Of a stretch of 60,969 nucleotides of DNA, positions 3,581 to 34,836 are shown piece after piece. The stretch spans positions 1 through 60,969 of the forward strand of contig JBFHFF010000008.1 of assembly GCA_041583775.1 (NCBI GenBank), written 5' to 3'. Position 1 is the stretch's first letter. The number at the start of each line of letters is the position of its first letter. The position numbers were made by a program, and so were the translations under genes. The notes beneath the pieces are model-generated. The model saw only the letters and a list, made by a program, of their open reading frames with translations, did no database searches and had not been told where the DNA came from. The stretch is from Candidatus Moraniibacteriota bacterium (lineage in GTDB: Bacteria > Patescibacteriota > Minisyncoccia > Moranbacterales > DUUL01).

Positions 3581-4993
3581 CTATTCTTGCAAACTTTTCT
3601 TTAGGTACTCTACTAATTCCAAAACAGCTATTCTGGTTTGTTTCATTGTGTCACGATCACGCACAGTAACCTTTCCATCTTCAAGAGAGTCAAAGTCAAC
3701 TGTCACGCAATATGGTGTTCCAATTTCGTCTTGGCGACGATATCTCTTCCCCACATTACCGTTATCATCAAACTCGCACATAAATTGCGTTTTGAGTTCA
3801 TCATATATCTCACGCGCCTTTGCAACAAGTTCCGGTTTGTTTTTTAAAAGAGGAAAAATTGCTACTTTTATCGGCGCAAGTTTCTTTGGCAACTTAAGCA
3901 CTGTACGCTCATTACCATCACCCAAATCTTCTTCTACATATGAATCAGTCAATACAGCAAAAAAAGTTCTGTCTACGCCCACAGAAGTTTCAACAACATG
4001 TGGCACAAAAACTTCTCCAGTAACGGGGTTGCGATATTCCAATTTTTGTCCAGAAAATTTTGCATGCTGTGTTAAATCATAATCACCTCTTGCATGAACA
4101 CCTTCAAGCTCTTTAAAACCAAATGGAAATTTATACTCAATATCCCAAGCAGCTTTTGCGTAGAAAACCAAATTCTCATGTTGATGCCATTTTAAATTCT
4201 CCTCTTTTAAGCCTAAATCTATATAATATTGCCATCTTCGCTCTCGCCAATCTTCATATGTCTTCATTGCGTCATCTGGATGGACAAACATTTGCATTTC
4301 CATCTGCTCAAATTCACGCTTTCTGAAAATAAACTGTCTTGCAGTAATTTCGTTTCGAAAAGCCTTACCAATTTGTGCTATTCCAAAGGGAACTTTCACT
4401 CGAGTCGAATCAAGTACATTTTTATAGTTTACATAAATTCCCTGACAAGTTTCGCCTCGCAAATAAGTTGGTTCTTTCTCCCAATTACCTGTAAAATTTC
4501 CCAGATTAGACTGCACAAGTAGATTAAAATTCTTTGCTGGAGCAAAGTCGTTACTTCCACATTTAGGACATCGCAATTTTTCTTTTGCATCAACCAAAAG
4601 AATGTTGATCTCTTCTTCTGACATTTTTTCGTCAGCAAATACTCCAGCTTCCTCCAAAAGATGATCCACTCTCACGCGTGCATGACACTTTTTGCACTCT
4701 GAGAGTGGGTCACTAAAGCCACCTACATGTCCAGACGCCTCCCAAATTCTAGGATGCATAAAAATACTGCTATCAAGTCCTACTATATTTTCATTTTCTT
4801 GCACCATTGCCTTCCACCAAGCTTCACGAATATTTTTTGCGAGTTCCGCACCATAAGGACCAAAATCATAAACAGCCGAAAAACCACCATAAATCTCACT
4901 TGAAGCAAACACAAAACCTCGCCTTTTAGCAAAGCTTGTGATTTTCTCCATTGTTACATTTGTTGCAACTTCCTTCTTCTCCTCTTCTGACAT
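3581..4993 (-). CDS. glyQS: Glycine--tRNA ligase, dimeric class II type
   Basis: 470 aa. N-terminus ...KRRGFVFASSEIYGGFSAVYDFGPYGAELAKNIREAWW and the rest are typical GlyQS. Preceded by a T-box leader. Confidence 0.95.
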   Translation of the reverse strand: MSEEEKKEVATNVTMEKITSFAKRRGFVFASSEIYGGFSAVYDFGPYGAELAKNIREAWWKAMVQENENIVGLDSSIFMHPRIWEASGHVGGFSDPLSECKKCHARVRVDHLLEEAGVFADEKMSEEEINILLVDAKEKLRCPKCGSNDFAPAKNFNLLVQSNLGNFTGNWEKEPTYLRGETCQGIYVNYKNVLDSTRVKVPFGIAQIGKAFRNEITARQFIFRKREFEQMEMQMFVHPDDAMKTYEDWRERRWQYYIDLGLKEENLKWHQHENLVFYAKAAWDIEYKFPFGFKELEGVHARGDYDLTQHAKFSGQKLEYRNPVTGEVFVPHVVETSVGVDRTFFAVLTDSYVEEDLGDGNERTVLKLPKKLAPIKVAIFPLLKNKPELVAKAREIYDELKTQFMCEFDDNGNVGKRYRRQDEIGTPYCVTVDFDSLEDGKVTVRDRDTMKQTRIAVLELVEYLKKSLQE

Positions 4994-5027: not shown

Positions 5028-5238
5028 AAAAAAATAAAAAACTCGTCCCAACAATTCCATTTAAAAAAATGAAATTATCAGGACGAGTCATTAAAACATC
5101 ATTGCTCAATTGAGCTATAGATCTTGATACCCGCGGTTCCACCTGTTTTTTTCGCTCAAAAATACTCTTGTGCGAAACTGCTCTTTTATTGCTTTTCAAC
5201 TCCAGGGATCCAATCCCCCTTCAATGTTGAAGTGAACT
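5028..5238 (-). promoter_or_regulatory. T-box leader (tRNA-sensing transcription attenuator) of glyQS
   Basis: The minus-strand leader has the T-box core AACAGGUGGAACCGCGGG (rc of ~5130-5147) and a stem III-like hairpin UUUCGC-N16-GCGAAA. It ends in an intrinsic terminator ACUCGUCC-N32-GGACGAGU plus a U-run (5028-5088), ~35 nt before the ATG. The UGGA bulge sequence fits a U73 discriminator, as in tRNA-Gly. Confidence 0.65.
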
Positions 5239-5244
5239 GAATAA

Positions 5245-5273
5245 ATAATATAACATTAAAATATTTATGTCAA
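5245..5273 (-). promoter_or_regulatory. Sigma-70-type promoter for the glyQS leader
   Basis: Minus strand reads TTGACA (rc of 5268-5273), a 17-nt spacer, then TATTAT (rc of 5245-5250). Confidence 0.5.
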
Positions 5274-14724: not shown

Positions 14725-15222
14725 ATGGAAAATAATACTGCGAAAAGCCAACAGATGGAAACAGCAATAGTTCAATTATTAACGATTGATGAGACAATCG
14801 AGAAAATAGAAAAACTCAAAACCTACCCTGGTAATATTGCCAATCTGCTCTTTGGGGCAGATGACCCGGAAGATGCCTTATTCTTTCAATACATAGCGAA
14901 AGTTTCGGGCCCTGGCAGATGGGAAGTCGACACAATGTTCCTAAACAAAGTCGCAAGGTCGGCCGTAGTAACAACTTTTGAGGAACAAGCTGGGCGTAAA
15001 AAAGTCCTTTCCTACAGGATTTTCACTGCAATAAAATATTGCGGAATCGCAGCGACTGAGGACATTGAGTGCCCCGAAAGGCCTCAGATGTATGACCTTG
15101 CTTTCAAGGCACAGATTAAAAAAACGGGTGACAACACCCTCACTCTCCATCTTTCGGCAAAAGATATCTCCTATGAGACATCCTATGAAAAGACGCTTAG
15201 GTTTATTTTCATATGGAAATAG
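14725..15222 (+). CDS. Hypothetical protein
   Basis: The track ORF starts at 14584, but ATG 14725 (MENNTAKSQQ...) is preceded by GGGAGAGAG at 14714-14722. Followed by a terminator. Confidence 0.6.
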   Translation: MENNTAKSQQMETAIVQLLTIDETIEKIEKLKTYPGNIANLLFGADDPEDALFFQYIAKVSGPGRWEVDTMFLNKVARSAVVTTFEEQAGRKKVLSYRIFTAIKYCGIAATEDIECPERPQMYDLAFKAQIKKTGDNTLTLHLSAKDISYETSYEKTLRFIFIWK

Positions 15223-28699: not shown

Positions 28700-28865
28700 A
28701 AAAAAATAAACGGTATCATTTTATTGATAACCCGCCCTTTATTTTTGTTATTATCAAAACGCAAACTCAGTATAAACAAAATATTATATTTCTGCAAATA
28801 GACCCTTTTCTTTTCAACTAAGCATTGGATCTCATTTTCAGTTCCTCTAAAAATAAATCGCCCCC

Positions 28866-28893
28866 TTGACAATATCCCCCACTATGCTATATT
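28866..28893 (+). promoter_or_regulatory. Promoter with the same TTGACAATAT...TATGCTAT architecture as the three sRNA-unit promoters
   Basis: TTGACA (28866-28871), a 16-nt spacer ending in TGC, then TATATT (28888-28893). Confidence 0.45.
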
Positions 28894-28899
28894 AAATGT

Positions 28900-29014
28900 A
28901 ATATTAAAAATATTAGTACTTTTACACGCTTAACAAAGCCTCCTACCCCTGACTATTTTCGCCGCATAATTCTCTCCCAAGAATAAAAAACCGAATTTAG
29001 TCAGGGTTTTTTTT
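28900..29014 (+). ncRNA. Candidate ~115-nt small RNA with C/U-rich (anti-SD-like) motifs
   Basis: Bounded by the promoter above and a long-range hairpin CCCTGACTA (28947-28955) / TAGTCAGGG (28998-29006) followed by T8. Contains CCUCCU and an inner 5-bp hairpin presenting CUCCCA. No ORF inside. Confidence 0.35.
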
Positions 29015-29074
29015 GTTTATTTTTGCTATTTCACTGCTTATTATTCTCTTTTTTAGTTCAAGAAAAGGCCAGGG

Positions 29075-29273: not shown

Positions 29274-29426
29274 ACATTCACATATTCAAAACTAAACTTG
29301 TTTAAAAATTGATTCGAAATTCAAATTTGTTTCATTCAAACTCTTGGCTTTTTCATTCCAAGGGTATATCCTTAAACTAGGTTTGTTATTCTCATTTGGT
29401 CTAAGTTACAAAAAAAGGAGTTGGCG

Positions 29427-29570
29427 ATGGAACGAGAAACATTTCAAGCAATACAAAGGGTTTTAGATGCAGACCCCGAACTTGCAAAAAAGGTGTTTGC
29501 GATCGAGAATATATCTGATCACACACCACAACCCGAAGAAGAAACTTCGACTCAAAAAGAGTCAAAATAA
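29427..29570 (+). CDS. Small acidic protein, 47 aa (below the ORF-track cutoff)
   Basis: AAAGGAG lies 7 nt upstream of the ATG. Sequence is MERETFQAIQRVLDADPELAKKVFAIENISDHTPQPEEETSTQKESK, with TAA at 29568-29570 and an intrinsic terminator right after. Confidence 0.5.
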   Translation: MERETFQAIQRVLDADPELAKKVFAIENISDHTPQPEEETSTQKESK

Positions 29571-29578
29571 CCAATTCT

Positions 29579-29616
29579 GCTGGCTATCACATCCGATGGC
29601 CAGCAATCTTTTTTTA
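29579..29616 (+). terminator. Intrinsic terminator of the small ORF
   Basis: GCTGGC-N14-GCCAGC followed by AATCTTTTTTT. Confidence 0.65.
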
Positions 29617-29654
29617 TTTCAAGCCATTTCAAAAACACTTTGTCTTATTTTTCA

Positions 29655-29711
29655 ATAAATAAAAAAGCACGGGAGATTTTCAAAAGTTTCTTTGAAAATC
29701 GCACCGTGCTG
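29655..29711 (-). terminator. Long-hairpin terminator of cassette gene A (conserved with 33815-33865)
   Basis: rc: AGCACGGTGCGATTTTCAAA-GAAACT-TTTGAAAATCTCCCGTGCT followed by TTTTTT. Confidence 0.7.
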
Positions 29712-29725
29712 TCAAATCCGAAACT

Positions 29726-30154
29726 TCACTCAAGCTCTTCTTCGCTTAGAATCTTGTCCATATTCCTTGCTCGCAAGATGATTATAGAAGCTTGTCTTGA
29801 AGCTTCTTTTTCGGCCAATTTGTAGCACTTGAGATATTTTGATTCCCTCTCAAGGTCAATCACTTGGGAAAAAACCTCTGCTTGAGCCATATAGCTAGCA
29901 ACAACTATAGCTACAATAGAATCAGCGTCAAGTCCCGTCTCTTTCATCCTAAGGATATCTCCTTCAGAAAACCCAAAGACTAAATCCGGGCAAACGAGAT
30001 TCTCCCCAGCAACAGACTGGGCACGCTTGGAATCAGGAGAGTTTTTTGCTTCTATTGAAGCTTGCCCTTGTGAATAACAAGGAACGGCAAAAAACAACAA
30101 GAAACCAAAAAACACTAACCAGAAACATTTTTTCCCTGCCCTGTCTTTCTTCAT
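29726..30154 (-). CDS. Small N-terminally anchored/secreted protein, cassette paralog A
   Basis: The track ORF runs to 30262, but GAGGAGG lies 6 nt upstream of ATG 30154, giving MKKDRAGKKCFWLVFFGFLLFFAVPCYSQGQ... (142 aa). A TTGACC-17-GATTAT promoter lies inside the longer ORF. Confidence 0.65.
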   Translation of the reverse strand: MKKDRAGKKCFWLVFFGFLLFFAVPCYSQGQASIEAKNSPDSKRAQSVAGENLVCPDLVFGFSEGDILRMKETGLDADSIVAIVVASYMAQAEVFSQVIDLERESKYLKCYKLAEKEASRQASIIILRARNMDKILSEEELE

Positions 30155-30361
30155 CACTTTCCTCCTCAAAAAAGTACTTGGGTTCACACAATGTGAACTT
30201 ATATTTAATCGCAAAAAATTATTACGATTTGAAATAATCTCATATTTATGAAATTTGGTCAATGCCTTTGTATACTGCGGTTTGATATCATTAAAAAACT
30301 TGCCTCATCGCTCACAAACAAAGGGGCTTGACAATATTTTTGAGTATGCTATTGTATAAGT

Positions 30362-30427
30362 AATCTCAAAAGAGATCACAATAATAAAAGCTGATAAATC
30401 ATTGATTTATCAGCTTTTCTCTTTTTT
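30362..30427 (+). ncRNA. Candidate ~60-nt sRNA, copy A
   Basis: TTGACA (30328-30333), 16 nt, TGC-TATTGT (30350-30355). The transcript is AAUCUCAAAAGAGAUCACAAUAAUAAAAGCUGAUAAAUCAUUGAUUUAUCAGCUUUUCUCUUUUUU. No ORF. Confidence 0.45.
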
Positions 30428-30470
30428 ATTTTATCAAACTCTTTTAAAAACAAAACAATTCTTTTATAAC

Positions 30471-30502
30471 AAAAACCTCGGTACTTTCATACTGAGGTTT
30501 TT
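30471..30502. terminator. Bidirectional terminator downstream of the transporter gene
   Basis: AAAAACCTCGGTA-CTTTCA-TACTGAGGTTTTT. Confidence 0.65.
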
Positions 30503-32487: not shown

Positions 32488-32864
32488 TTCTAATAAAAAA
32501 ATTCACAAAGGTTGATTATAATTTATTATCTTTTAATTAAACCTCTCTCTTAACAATGAACTTCATCACGAATTTGGCAGCCATTAACCAAAGCCGTCTT
32601 TTACAATTTTCATTTCAATTGAAAAGTTTTGGCTCATTCAAAGATTGAGATATTTTAAAAACTCATTTCATTATAATTACACAAATAAAAAAAATTTTCA
32701 AGAGGCAAAAAATAAACATTTATCCCCCATACCTAAAGCAGATTTAAAGACAAATTGATTACACTAATCACCCCTTTTTTCTTTGACAAAATAAAAATAA
32801 TGTGCCACGATGTAACATTATGAGAGTGTTTCTCATAATAAAATCAACAAAAAAGGAGGATGTG

Positions 32865-33461
32865 ATGAGTGAAAAAAGAGTGGTTATTAAACCTTCTAGG
32901 AGAAAAATAATGGTGGATGCAATTTCAACATTCATCATTACGATCGGAGTATACCTGGTGATTTATTTTTTCATATTGCCAGCGTTTCAAGTGAGCCTGA
33001 GAGAGTTCTTGGGCACAAACAGCAATTTTTTCGTAAAAGTTTTTGACATAACACAGTTTGTGTCAAGAAACTTTGTGGCAACGGGGATTTTTCTTGGGGG
33101 ATTTTTCGCCTTCATCAGAGTCCAGCTGGGGATAAGAACCAGCTATATAGTGGAAGAGGAAAGGCTTATAATCCGCACTCCCTTCAAAGACGAGGAGATT
33201 CTTTTTTCGGAACTAGAAAACGCCTTTCTCTCTCACTCCAGAGCTGGGAGTATCCTACGATACTCCACCATAAGGCTGATGCCTAAAGGGCTTTATAAAA
33301 AAGAATTCTTTTTGGTTGGGGTAGAACAATATTTTTCCCTTCTATTAAAAATCGGGGGCAGAATGAAAAGGGCAGAAATTAGAAAAAAACTAGAGGGGGA
33401 AAAAATTCCAACTCCTTCAACTCCCTGCGAAAAAATAATCGGGAACTTGGCAAAAAAATAA
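32865..33461 (+). CDS. Membrane protein with a bacterial PH (YdbS/YdbT-like) domain
   Basis: AAGGAGG at 32853-32859 precedes ATG 32865 (MSEKRVVIKPSRRK...). Two TM helices are followed by ...EEERLIIRTPFKDEEILFSELENAFL. Confidence 0.5.
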   Translation: MSEKRVVIKPSRRKIMVDAISTFIITIGVYLVIYFFILPAFQVSLREFLGTNSNFFVKVFDITQFVSRNFVATGIFLGGFFAFIRVQLGIRTSYIVEEERLIIRTPFKDEEILFSELENAFLSHSRAGSILRYSTIRLMPKGLYKKEFFLVGVEQYFSLLLKIGGRMKRAEIRKKLEGEKIPTPSTPCEKIIGNLAKK

Positions 33462-33506
33462 CCTACCGAAACGGAAAATCTGCTTCGGTAGGTTTTCTGT
33501 TTTTTA
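33461..33506 (+). terminator. Intrinsic terminator
   Basis: ACCTACCGAA-N13-TTCGGTAGGT followed by TTTCTGTTTTTT. Confidence 0.7.
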
Positions 33507-33657
33507 GATCATAAATTAAAAAACCGTATCATCAATAGTTGTTCACTGCCACCTTTATGTTGTGAAAACTCCCCTTGTAAAAAACTCGTCTTGTCATTCA
33601 TAAGCACTCACAAACAACAAGGCTTGACAATATTTTTGAGTATGCTATTGTATAAGT

Positions 33658-33722
33658 AATCTCAAAAGAGACCACAATAATAAAACCCCGTAAATCATCT
33701 GATTTATCGGGTTTTTTCTTTG
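33658..33722 (+). ncRNA. Candidate ~60-nt sRNA, copy B
   Basis: TTGACA at 33624-33629 and TGC-TATTGT at 33646-33651. The transcript is AAUCUCAAAAGAGACCACAAUAAUAAAACCCCGUAAAUCAUCUGAUUUAUCGGGUUUUUUCUUU. Identical to copy C. Confidence 0.45.
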
Positions 33723-33814
33723 TGCTAAAATTTCCAAAAAGCATTTTTTTAAAAAACCATCTATACACAAAAATTTTCTATTTTTCTATAATGCATCACT
33801 TCTTTTTTGATAAA

Positions 33815-33865
33815 TAAAAAAAGCACGGGGATTTTCAGAAATTTCTCTGAAAATCTCACCGTGCT
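33815..33865 (-). terminator. Long-hairpin terminator of cassette gene B
   Basis: rc: AGCACGGTGAGATTTTCAGA-GAAAT-TTCTGAAAATCCCCGTGCT followed by a T-run. Confidence 0.7.
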
Positions 33866-33873
33866 GTTGGAAA

Positions 33874-34263
33874 TTATTTTATCCCCCCTTCTTTGATCTT
33901 TGCGGCGAATTCGTTCGCCATTTCTAAAATCTTCATGGCTGAGTCCAGAAAAAGAAGCATACTTTCTGCGTCCTCAGCTTCTTTCGCAATTTCCATATTC
34001 CTATGGAAATCTCGAATGTACCCCTTCCAGATAATTTTCTGGATCCTTTCTTCGGTATATCCGAGGTCCTCCAATCGAAGGACTTGGAAATCGACTAACT
34101 TCTGTTGCGGACACTCCGGTTGAAGTGTGACCACTACGGTCCTTCCAAAATCCTGCCCCGTCTCTGAACTTCCGCCTTTCTGGAACACAAAATAGTAAAG
34201 TCCCATTAGAAAAAAGACGCTCATAAAAAAACATAGAAAAAAACTCCGACTTTCCTTACGCAT
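33874..34263 (-). CDS. Small N-terminally anchored protein, cassette paralog B
   Basis: 129 aa, MRKESRSFFLCFFMSVFFLMGLYYFVF.... RBS GGGAGAGG lies 5 nt upstream of the ATG. Upstream promoter is TTGATA-17-TATGAT. Confidence 0.65.
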   Translation of the reverse strand: MRKESRSFFLCFFMSVFFLMGLYYFVFQKGGSSETGQDFGRTVVVTLQPECPQQKLVDFQVLRLEDLGYTEERIQKIIWKGYIRDFHRNMEIAKEAEDAESMLLFLDSAMKILEMANEFAAKIKEGGIK

Positions 34264-34447
34264 AATTCCTCTCCCGTGAGGTAATTTTTCAAACCTACAC
34301 CATGCAGGCTCATATTTTATCGCAAAAAATATTACGATTTTAAATCATATCATATGTTTATGCTTTTATCAACGCCACAAAAATACTTTGTAGTTCAATA
34401 TCCTCCAAAATACTTGACAATATTTTTGAGTATGCTATTGTATAAGT

Positions 34448-34512
34448 AATCTCAAAAGAGACCACAATAATAAAACCCCGTAAATCATCTGATTTATCGG
34501 GTTTTTTCTTTG
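34448..34512 (+). ncRNA. Candidate ~60-nt sRNA, copy C
   Basis: TTGACA at 34414-34419 and TGC-TATTGT at 34436-34441. Same sequence as copy B through the terminator and TTTGTGCTAAAATTT. Confidence 0.45.
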
Positions 34513-34836
34513 TGCTAAAATTTTATTCGCTAAGTCCAGAGATTTATCGGAACTTTTCTATCTAAAAAATAAAAGGATGCCTCCCTTGTTCCATAAAACC
34601 CGCTTCCAATGAGCGGGTTTTATGGTTTTGTGCTGCTTCCATTCAATCAGGAACCAATCACATCTCTTTTTTTGTTTGTGTTTTCTTTAAACACTTACTG
34701 AAATATTATACACCAAAAAATTGCTTTTGTTAATAGATCTTCTCTATGCTAATTTTAAATTAGCATCTGATAAAGAAGTGAAAGAGGACAACCATAGTAT
34801 ATGATTGCCCTCTTTTTTGACCTTTTTCTAAAGGTC

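Follow-up and report, generated by a model that had tools for sequence, protein, structure and literature searches.

The 60,969-nucleotide stretch of DNA analyzed here (the window) is one entire contig of a Moranbacteria-like member of the Patescibacteria (candidate phyla radiation, CPR). It contains a 111-nt unit that occurs three times, and two identical copies of this unit bracket an orphan gene for a 129-aa protein. The question raised by this locus is whether the unit is a gene for an RNA or instead a leader, a cis-acting punctuation element or the end of a mobile element. The unit has a promoter, hairpins and a terminator whose stem covaries, and it is conserved across lineages. Judged from its sequence, we think it rather likely that the unit is a stand-alone gene for an uncatalogued small non-coding RNA (sRNA) of about 60 nt, belonging to an sRNA gene family; this family is probably a new one in a little-studied phylum. 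This is the best reading because no Rfam family, terminal inverted repeat (TIR) or target-site duplication (TSD), phage or plasmid match, or downstream gene on the same strand was found for the unit. Stand-alone RNA genes had been proposed in an earlier note on this DNA; the core of that proposal is supported by an orthologue in a second lineage and by the covarying terminator, but several of its specifics fail.

A repeat search of the window found one family with three copies of 111 nt each. The copies and their parts are as follows.

30327-30437, plus strand: unit copy 1, divergent from the 142-aa cassette gene; terminator stem with compensatory changes.
33623-33733, plus strand: unit copy 2, 111 nt, convergent with the 129-aa gene; 100% identical to 34413-34523; 133.5 bits with covariance model (CM) R1.
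34413-34523, plus strand: unit copy 3, 111 nt, divergent from the 129-aa gene and convergent with a second RNA candidate, sRNA-X; presumed ancestral position.
33624-33651, plus strand: sigma-70-type promoter of copy 2, with -35 TTGACA at 33624-33629, TG at 33643-33644 and -10 TATTGT at 33646-33651.
30328-30355 (copy 1) and 790 nt beyond the copy 2 coordinates (copy 3), plus strand: promoters of the other copies, with identical elements.
33658-33718 (copy 2), about 34448-34508 (copy 3) and about 30362-30425 (copy 1), plus strand: predicted transcript of about 60 nt, placed by promoter and terminator geometry.
33660-33671, plus strand: 5' mini-hairpin UCUC-AAAA-GAGA, found by folding, inside the conserved block UAAUCUCAAA(A)GAGACCA.
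33682-33717, plus strand: intrinsic terminator, potentially bidirectional, consisting of an A-tract, an 11-bp stem and a U-tract.

Copies 2 and 3 are 100% identical, as the earlier note had stated, and it was also right that one of them converges with the 129-aa gene (33874-34263, minus strand) while the other diverges from it. The flanks of these two copies diverge directly beyond 33623/33733 and 34413/34523. Copy 1 is 76% identical to them over its full length and matches at 63 of 64 nt from the promoter through the A-rich stretch; compared with copy 2, it differs at 1 of the 64 nt in the promoter and 5' part and at 7 positions in the terminator, and the flanks of the two are about 75-87% identical. 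This third copy, which the note had placed beside a related gene, is real, but a longer related unit at 28865-29015 brings the family to more than three. The copies are dispersed, with spacings of 3296 and 790 nt, and each has a promoter and terminator of its own. A 30-mer and a 34-mer derived from the unit had zero occurrences in 100 dinucleotide shuffles. In four contexts, three in the window and one in the relative described below (contig L071), homology starts at CTTGACA, the -35 box; further upstream, similarity is limited to copies 1 and 2 and extends over about 45 nt. Four Logan assemblies from other runs (SRR29257450, SRR29257458, SRR29257459 and SRR29257461) encode the neighbouring phosphoesterase, with an identical product of 326 aa in three and a 332-aa product of the same cluster in the fourth. 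Three of these (contigs L067, L068 and L070) stop 343 nt past the phosphoesterase stop codon, which is 30 nt inside the right edge of the unit (34523); as this is one below the presumed 31-base assembly word, it is the behaviour expected at a true repeat.

The anatomy described previously (TTGACA, 16 nt, TGc-TATTGT, a UCUC-AAAA-GAGA hairpin and a Rho-independent terminator) was confirmed by promoter scan and by folding. The promoter is of the near-consensus housekeeping type, with CTTGACAATAT, a 16-nt spacer and a TRTG-type extended -10 element (TATGcTATTGT), and scored 10 of 12, with the TG, at 30328, 33624 and 34414. The RNA is predicted to start near 33658 (34448 and 30362 in the other copies) and to end in the U-tract. 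Its conserved 5' segment of about 25 nt bears the short stem-loop UAAUCUC-AAAA-GAGACCA and is followed by a variable A-rich linker and the terminator. The predicted fold has an energy of -17.7 kcal/mol for copies 2 and 3 (z = -5.0 against shuffles) and -22.8 kcal/mol for copy 1 (z = -6.4). A simple terminator scan flagged copy 1 alone, on both strands; in copies 2 and 3, a C-C mismatch interrupts the stem. The hexamer ACAATA/TATTGT is present three times in the window unit, at -35, at -10 and in the transcript, and together with the promoter spacer these repeats could be a regulator site. The earlier note had found no ATG or ORF (open reading frame) in the units; there is one, a mini-ORF ATG CTA TTG TAT AAG TAA at 33642-33659 (790 nt further on in copy 3, and 30346-30363 in copy 1), which lies within the promoter spacer and -10 element, upstream of the predicted start. 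The relative has a counterpart at about 13635-13652 of L071, ATG CTA AAG TAT AGC TAA, with frame and stop kept. This conservation is probably a coincidence, since no usable Shine-Dalgarno sequence is present.

No credible plus-strand gene was found downstream of any window copy, in agreement with the earlier observation, and the same holds in L071. In all four contexts, the gene that follows lies on the opposite strand. Thus, the unit is not a leader. A riboswitch or attenuator was rejected on the same ground, and because only about 25 nt precede the terminator.

Relatives were sought by protein-guided retrieval of related contigs, followed by nhmmer and CM R1. One clear homologue of the unit was identified in this way, in a lineage represented by three assemblies (L071, L072 and L073), with an nhmmer E-value of 1.5e-13 and 113.9 bits in the covariance-model search that the earlier note had suggested. 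This lineage is well separated from that of the window: identity is 65% for AtpC, 50% for the phosphoesterase and about 74% for coding DNA. The unit itself is 84-87% identical to the window units, above the value for coding DNA. It is found at the orthologous position, convergent with sRNA-X as is copy 3 in the window, but as a single copy, with no cassette attached and no divergent gene alongside. Conservation is highest at the 5' end. The promoter block matches at 25 of 25 positions, spacer included, and positions 1-52 match at 47 of 52; the 5' hairpin block is kept, with 4 of 4 pairs invariant across the window copies and L071. The spacer ATATTTTTGAGTATGC is identical across the lineages (window 33623-33651, L071 13671-13647), and the conserved word of the unit is CTTGACAATATTTTTGAGTATGCTA. 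The -10 element changes from TATTGT in the window to TAAAGT in L071, with the TA...T positions retained. In the terminator, the apical part is kept and the base covaries, with compensatory double changes in 4 pairs among three distinct sequences; 94.6% of the terminator cells are paired, a figure that falls to 32-48% in controls with partners shifted by 1-3 columns. The linker, by contrast, reads CCACAAUAAUAAAA in the window and CCAAAACC in L071. The unpaired CCACAAUAAUAAAA had been put forward as the targeting stretch, but it is the least conserved part of the RNA and was therefore dropped as a candidate seed. Exact-word scans with transcript 26- and 30-mers gave zero matches in genome, metagenome and viral contigs, with words that lay in this non-conserved linker; the conserved 25-mer was scanned on viral contigs only, again with zero matches.

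The earlier note had not recognized the RNA as any known family. Rfam 15, applied to the whole window at gathering thresholds, gave 0 matches, and in E-value mode the best match on the unit was a plastid 3' untranslated region (UTR) hairpin at 24.5 bits against a threshold of 51.5, covering the terminator only. As the note had also thought, the unit is not the terminus of a miniature inverted-repeat transposable element (MITE) or insertion sequence (IS): an inverted-repeat search returned just the internal terminator and matches between A/T runs, and no TSD was found. A CRISPR or TIGR guide-RNA array was rejected, the copies being dispersed and self-contained, with no defence family in the neighbouring proteins. 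No phage, plasmid or defence-island context was found for the locus.

Multicopy "sibling" sRNAs that act in trans, such as OmrA/OmrB, Qrr1-5, PrrF1/2 and LhrC1-5, offer the closest parallel in organization. Like the units, these are short (50-110 nt) stand-alone genes with their own promoter and intrinsic terminator, present in several copies per genome, some of them adjacent, and one segment hardly varies between copies, whereas the rest of the RNA and the terminator stem drift, with compensation. The unit, a candidate gene, differs from them in that a small hairpin partly sequesters its conserved segment, in that no complementarity to a target was detected, and in having no sequence or Rfam relationship to any of them. 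We know of no sRNA chaperone or target in the CPR host. A second parallel is provided by the divergent antitoxin sRNAs of type I toxin-antitoxin loci (IstR-1/tisB, OhsC/shoB and OrzO/zorO), in which a small membrane-helix protein is likewise encoded back to back with a small RNA gene, and the locus is duplicated and patchy between relatives. However, those proteins are hydrophobic peptides of fewer than 60 aa, whereas the ones here have 116-142 aa and a soluble helical domain; RNA-mRNA complementarity does not exceed that of shuffles, and neither copy 2 nor the L071 orthologue is paired with such a gene. A type I antitoxin RNA was rejected accordingly for the units beside the 129- and 142-aa genes. 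Small dispersed intergenic repeats that carry promoters or terminators, such as Correia elements, repetitive extragenic palindromes and bacterial interspersed mosaic elements (REP/BIME) and MITEs, are also about 100 bp long, repeated and hairpin-bearing, and occur in regions that differ between sister species. The units differ from these in having no TIR or TSD and only three copies in 61 kb, in that homology starts at the -35 box, and in the single orthologous copy with a covarying stem in another lineage.

Several features generally looked for in an sRNA gene are found in the unit: a promoter of its own at the 5' edge of the conserved block, a compensated terminator, no adjoining gene on the same strand, and occurrence in more than one genome. 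Its architecture is in no way unusual for bacterial sRNAs. The RNA would act in trans, and its functional determinant would be the conserved 5' stem-loop block rather than the A/U-rich linker; this block could act as a seed for base pairing or be bound by a protein. The three copies would be sibling genes, with copy 3 at the ancestral site beside sRNA-X. Copy 1 may have arisen with a duplicated cassette of about 0.8 kb (terminator, membrane-protein gene, promoter and unit), and copies 2 and 3 may have been made identical by recent duplication or gene conversion; such recent homogenization would account for a 129-aa gene bracketed by identical direct repeats. The short units may also be short relatives of the longer, C-rich sRNA candidate at 28865-29015.

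Several observations weigh against an sRNA gene. On the plus strand, the 5' hairpin is a weak one of 4 bp with flanking A-C mismatches; G-U pairs improve it on the minus strand, where it reaches 6-8 bp. No target was found: duplex energies against the neighbouring mRNAs (p = 0.25-0.46), against 51 start regions of the window with the conserved 5' block (p = 0.24), and against sRNA-X were no better than those of shuffles (p = 0.24-0.89 overall), and pairing with the convergent sRNA-X, considered as a possible target, gave no signal. As the search covered only 61 kb of the genome, this is not strong negative evidence. The family was detected in only two lineages. It is missing from both syntenic sites in the sister species (L001), and the downstream regions fetched from five further relatives (L115, L117, L118, L119 and L121) show no short unit; sRNA-X is kept where these regions contain it. 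The near-identity of the window copies could come from gene conversion rather than selection. Finally, conservation of the promoter spacer equals that of the hexamers, more than an ordinary promoter requires; in the sRNA-X promoter, by contrast, conservation is confined to the hexamers. The fully conserved spacer hints at an extra constraint, for example a regulator site.

The alternatives to be weighed depend in part on the genes beside the units, which are arranged as follows.

33874-34263, minus strand: orphan 129-aa gene (116 aa in the public collection); the product consists of a membrane helix at the N terminus, then a disordered linker and a helical hairpin.
34344-34372, minus strand: promoter for the 129-aa protein gene (TTGATA, 17 nt, TG-TATGAT), in a back-to-back arrangement with that of unit copy 3.
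33799-33867, minus strand: terminator of the 129-aa gene (repeat D2), 81-87% identical to 29644-29712.
29644-30326, minus strand: cassette A, with D2 terminator 29644-29712, gene for a 142-aa membrane-anchored protein 29726-30154, and promoter 30234-30262.

The two modules have the same build: a D2 terminator, a gene for a small membrane-anchored protein, a promoter and 5'UTR, and a unit pointing the opposite way. Their non-coding parts are clearly homologous, at 81-87% identity for the terminators, 85% for the promoter and 5'UTR, and 98% for the first 64 nt of the unit. The two genes had been described as paralogous, but only these flanking parts are homologous; the coding parts are not alignable and the proteins are not significantly similar (BLASTP E = 36). 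In a word-indexed search the 129-aa protein found only itself, and exhaustive HMMER against 1.8 billion representatives gave marginal matches only, one of them a secreted helical-repeat protein; related loci could thus not be reached through homologues of this protein. The protein matched no Pfam or PADLOC family, and no defence family was found among the neighbouring proteins. A single-sequence AlphaFold2 model (pLDDT, the predicted local distance difference test, 68) shows the membrane helix, disordered linker and helical hairpin. Cassette A, together with unit copy 1, is missing from the syntenic site in L001. Adjoining cassette A, at 29421-29570 (plus strand), is a small ORF of 49 aa with the motif DPELAKKV and its own terminator; it has a counterpart at about 17460-17330 in L001 and no Pfam match.

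The alternative that survives best is a cis-acting punctuation element whose RNA has no function in itself, which we consider unlikely. The bidirectional terminator might shield the cassette promoters from read-through out of the transporter gene, the 129-aa gene or sRNA-X, or the strong outward promoter might affect the back-to-back cassette promoter, for example by local supercoiling or competition for polymerase. Such a role agrees with the A and T runs that flank the hairpin and with the flagging of copy 1 as a terminator on both strands, as well as with the arrangement on the minus strand, where each copy sits after another gene's terminator and copies 1 and 3 precede a cassette promoter 42-66 bp away. 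The lack of conservation in the linker, and of a trans target among the neighbouring mRNAs and window start regions, points the same way. However, a strong terminator is already present at every neighbouring gene, and the conserved promoter and 5' hairpin (47/52 across lineages) would be needless in a pure terminator. A purely cis-acting role is possible for copies 1 and 3, but it fits neither copy 2 nor the L071 orthologue, which have no adjacent divergent gene.

It is improbable that the units are decaying or neutral duplicates, that is, truncated paralogues of 28865-29015 that were copied with the cassettes, kept alike by gene conversion and have no function. The motifs shared with the longer unit (CTTGACAATAT, TATGCTAT, GTAAT and the AAAA loop), the weak matches of CM R1 to long units, the 100% identity of copies 2 and 3, as after recent conversion, and the lack of short units in the sister species L001 are all in keeping with such an origin. 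Against it, the short form is kept at the orthologous site in a lineage with only about 74% coding identity, where it has compensatory changes in the terminator and an intact promoter, neither of which is expected of a pseudogene.

Even less probable is a mobile or recombinogenic element, with the unit serving as the end of a small gene cassette or as a site of attachment or recombination; the arrangement unit-gene-unit would then record the insertion or excision of a segment of about 790 bp through recombination between units. A gene bracketed by identical 111-bp direct repeats, two cassettes with homologous non-coding flanks around proteins that are not detectably similar, the absence of both cassettes from the syntenic sites in L001 (insertion hot spots with a different repeat family) and the branching of assembly graphs at the unit edge could all be explained in this way. 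On the other hand, the only TIRs are low-complexity A/T runs and no TSD was found; no recombinase was noticed in a look at neighbouring genes that covered a minority of the window's proteins; there are no copies in phage, plasmid or viral collections; and the single L071 unit is not attached to such a cassette. A more elaborate form of this idea, to which we give slightly less weight again, is that the unit is the conserved end of an integrase-less gene cassette and also supplies an sRNA, with modules of about 0.8 kb being inserted, excised or swapped; each module would carry a fast-diversifying gene for a membrane-anchored protein between conserved non-coding flanks. If this were true, an episymbiotic CPR lineage would have a private means of shuffling surface proteins.

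A product other than a plus-strand RNA is highly improbable. It could be a structured minus-strand RNA that includes the conserved 25-nt block: the minus strand has the stronger fold (-24.0 versus -17.7 kcal/mol) and a small hairpin that G-U pairs lengthen to 6-8 bp in all sequences, and the spacer is fully conserved (25/25). Alternatively, it could be the peptide of the 5-codon mini-ORF (MLLYK in the window, MLKYS in L071), whose frame and stop are kept. Against the first, the minus strand has no promoter in the scan, no terminator past the block and another terminator ahead of every copy, and an RNA sequence would have to spell TTGACA, 16 nt and TGnTAnnnT by chance in every copy, the L071 variant TAAAGT among them. 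Against the second, the mini-ORF lacks a suitably spaced Shine-Dalgarno sequence, precedes the predicted start and is missing in the long unit of L001.

An sRNA gene family remains our preferred reading of the unit, and the same promoter type occurs elsewhere in the window. A regular-expression scan for TTGACA with TGnTAnnnT found 5 sites in the window: the three short units, a site at 28866 and one at 5273 on the minus strand. A match in another contig (L042) was merely the promoter upstream of a protein gene. The site at 28866 belongs to the longer related unit.

28865-29015, plus strand: longer related unit with the same CTTGACAATAT...TATGCTAT promoter, an AAAA-loop 5' hairpin, a C-rich CCUCCUACCCC stretch and a large terminator.

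Its predicted RNA is about 115 nt long. It has CTTGACAATAT, TATGCTAT, GTAAT and the AAAA-loop hairpin in common with the short units, and the C-rich CCUCCUACCCC linker and large terminator in addition. An orthologue of the longer unit is found in L001 at 18745-18590 (minus strand). CM R1, which models the short unit, detects both only weakly (E = 4e-3 in the window, 8e-4 in L001), and the fold z-scores of the long units are -6.1 and -7.6. C-rich stretches of the CCUCC and UCUCUCCC types are exposed in the linker and loop of both; a consensus fold of the two was attempted, but their alignment is too poor to inform. In these exposed C-rich stretches the longer unit resembles the RsaE/RoxS type of C-rich sRNAs from Firmicutes, as in sRNAs directed against Shine-Dalgarno sequences, but it has no Rfam match, and the short units do not have the C-rich motif. 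The site at 5273 fronts a T-box-like leader at about 5036-5273 (minus strand), with a GGTGGAACCGCGG box and a terminator, upstream of a class II aminoacyl-tRNA synthetase gene at 3581-4993; the TTGACA/TG-extended motif is thus a marker of genuine transcription starts in this bacterium. With the Rfam T-box model this leader reaches only 22.5 bits against a gathering threshold of 93, and from its sequence it is a putative divergent CPR T-box, one that standard annotation would miss.

The element convergent with unit copy 3 is a further RNA candidate.

34585-34733, minus strand: sRNA-X, with promoter TTAACA-17-TATAAT, three hairpins and a terminator at 34625-34591.

It was matched by nhmmer in 5 other lineages and in 2 more by eye, and is present in at least eight related lineages, where it lies just downstream of atpC or the phosphoesterase gene. 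Five of its pairs covary, a single-stranded CAAACAAAAAAAGAGA stretch in it is conserved, and the element shows stronger conservation than the 111-nt unit itself. No Rfam family corresponds to sRNA-X; identification as signal recognition particle (SRP) RNA or another known RNA was rejected, as the GGAAGCAGC motif is not conserved.

An sRNA candidate for which no target is found is, taken alone, nothing out of the ordinary. The regulatory RNAs of the Patescibacteria are almost unexplored, however, and full-text searches of one literature library found no paper devoted to them. The multicopy RNA of about 60 nt, its longer C-rich relative and sRNA-X are three candidates with clean promoters and terminators; they would be useful as entry points to post-transcriptional control in tiny genomes with few transcription factors, and also help to describe CPR promoters and terminators.

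The window has about 35% GC and contains an ATP-synthase operon, glycosyltransferases and a transporter, with nearly all genes on the minus strand. The nearest species representative is L001, a Candidatus Moraniibacteriota metagenome-assembled genome (MAG), with AtpG 93% identical as protein and DNA about 82% identical; all other genomes are at 45% or less. AtpC is 83% identical between L001 and the window. L001 is syntenic with the window on both sides of the unit region, but window segments 29374-30471 and 32535-34583 correspond to only 254 and 775 bp in L001, with a different repeat family. Members of this other short repeat family (aacgagttaacgagtta..., tcgaatttcgaattt...) are found at 14870-14990 and 17580-17700 in L001 and at 2460-2495 in L079, in the same intergenic spots as the window cassettes. 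Because a different repeat family fills these spots in relatives, they appear to be hot spots for the insertion of lineage-specific repeats. Five further Logan contigs (L074-L078) all stop 333 nt past the phosphoesterase stop codon, in accatggaacgttccatggtacgttaccat, which suggests that yet another repeat occupies that position in their lineage.

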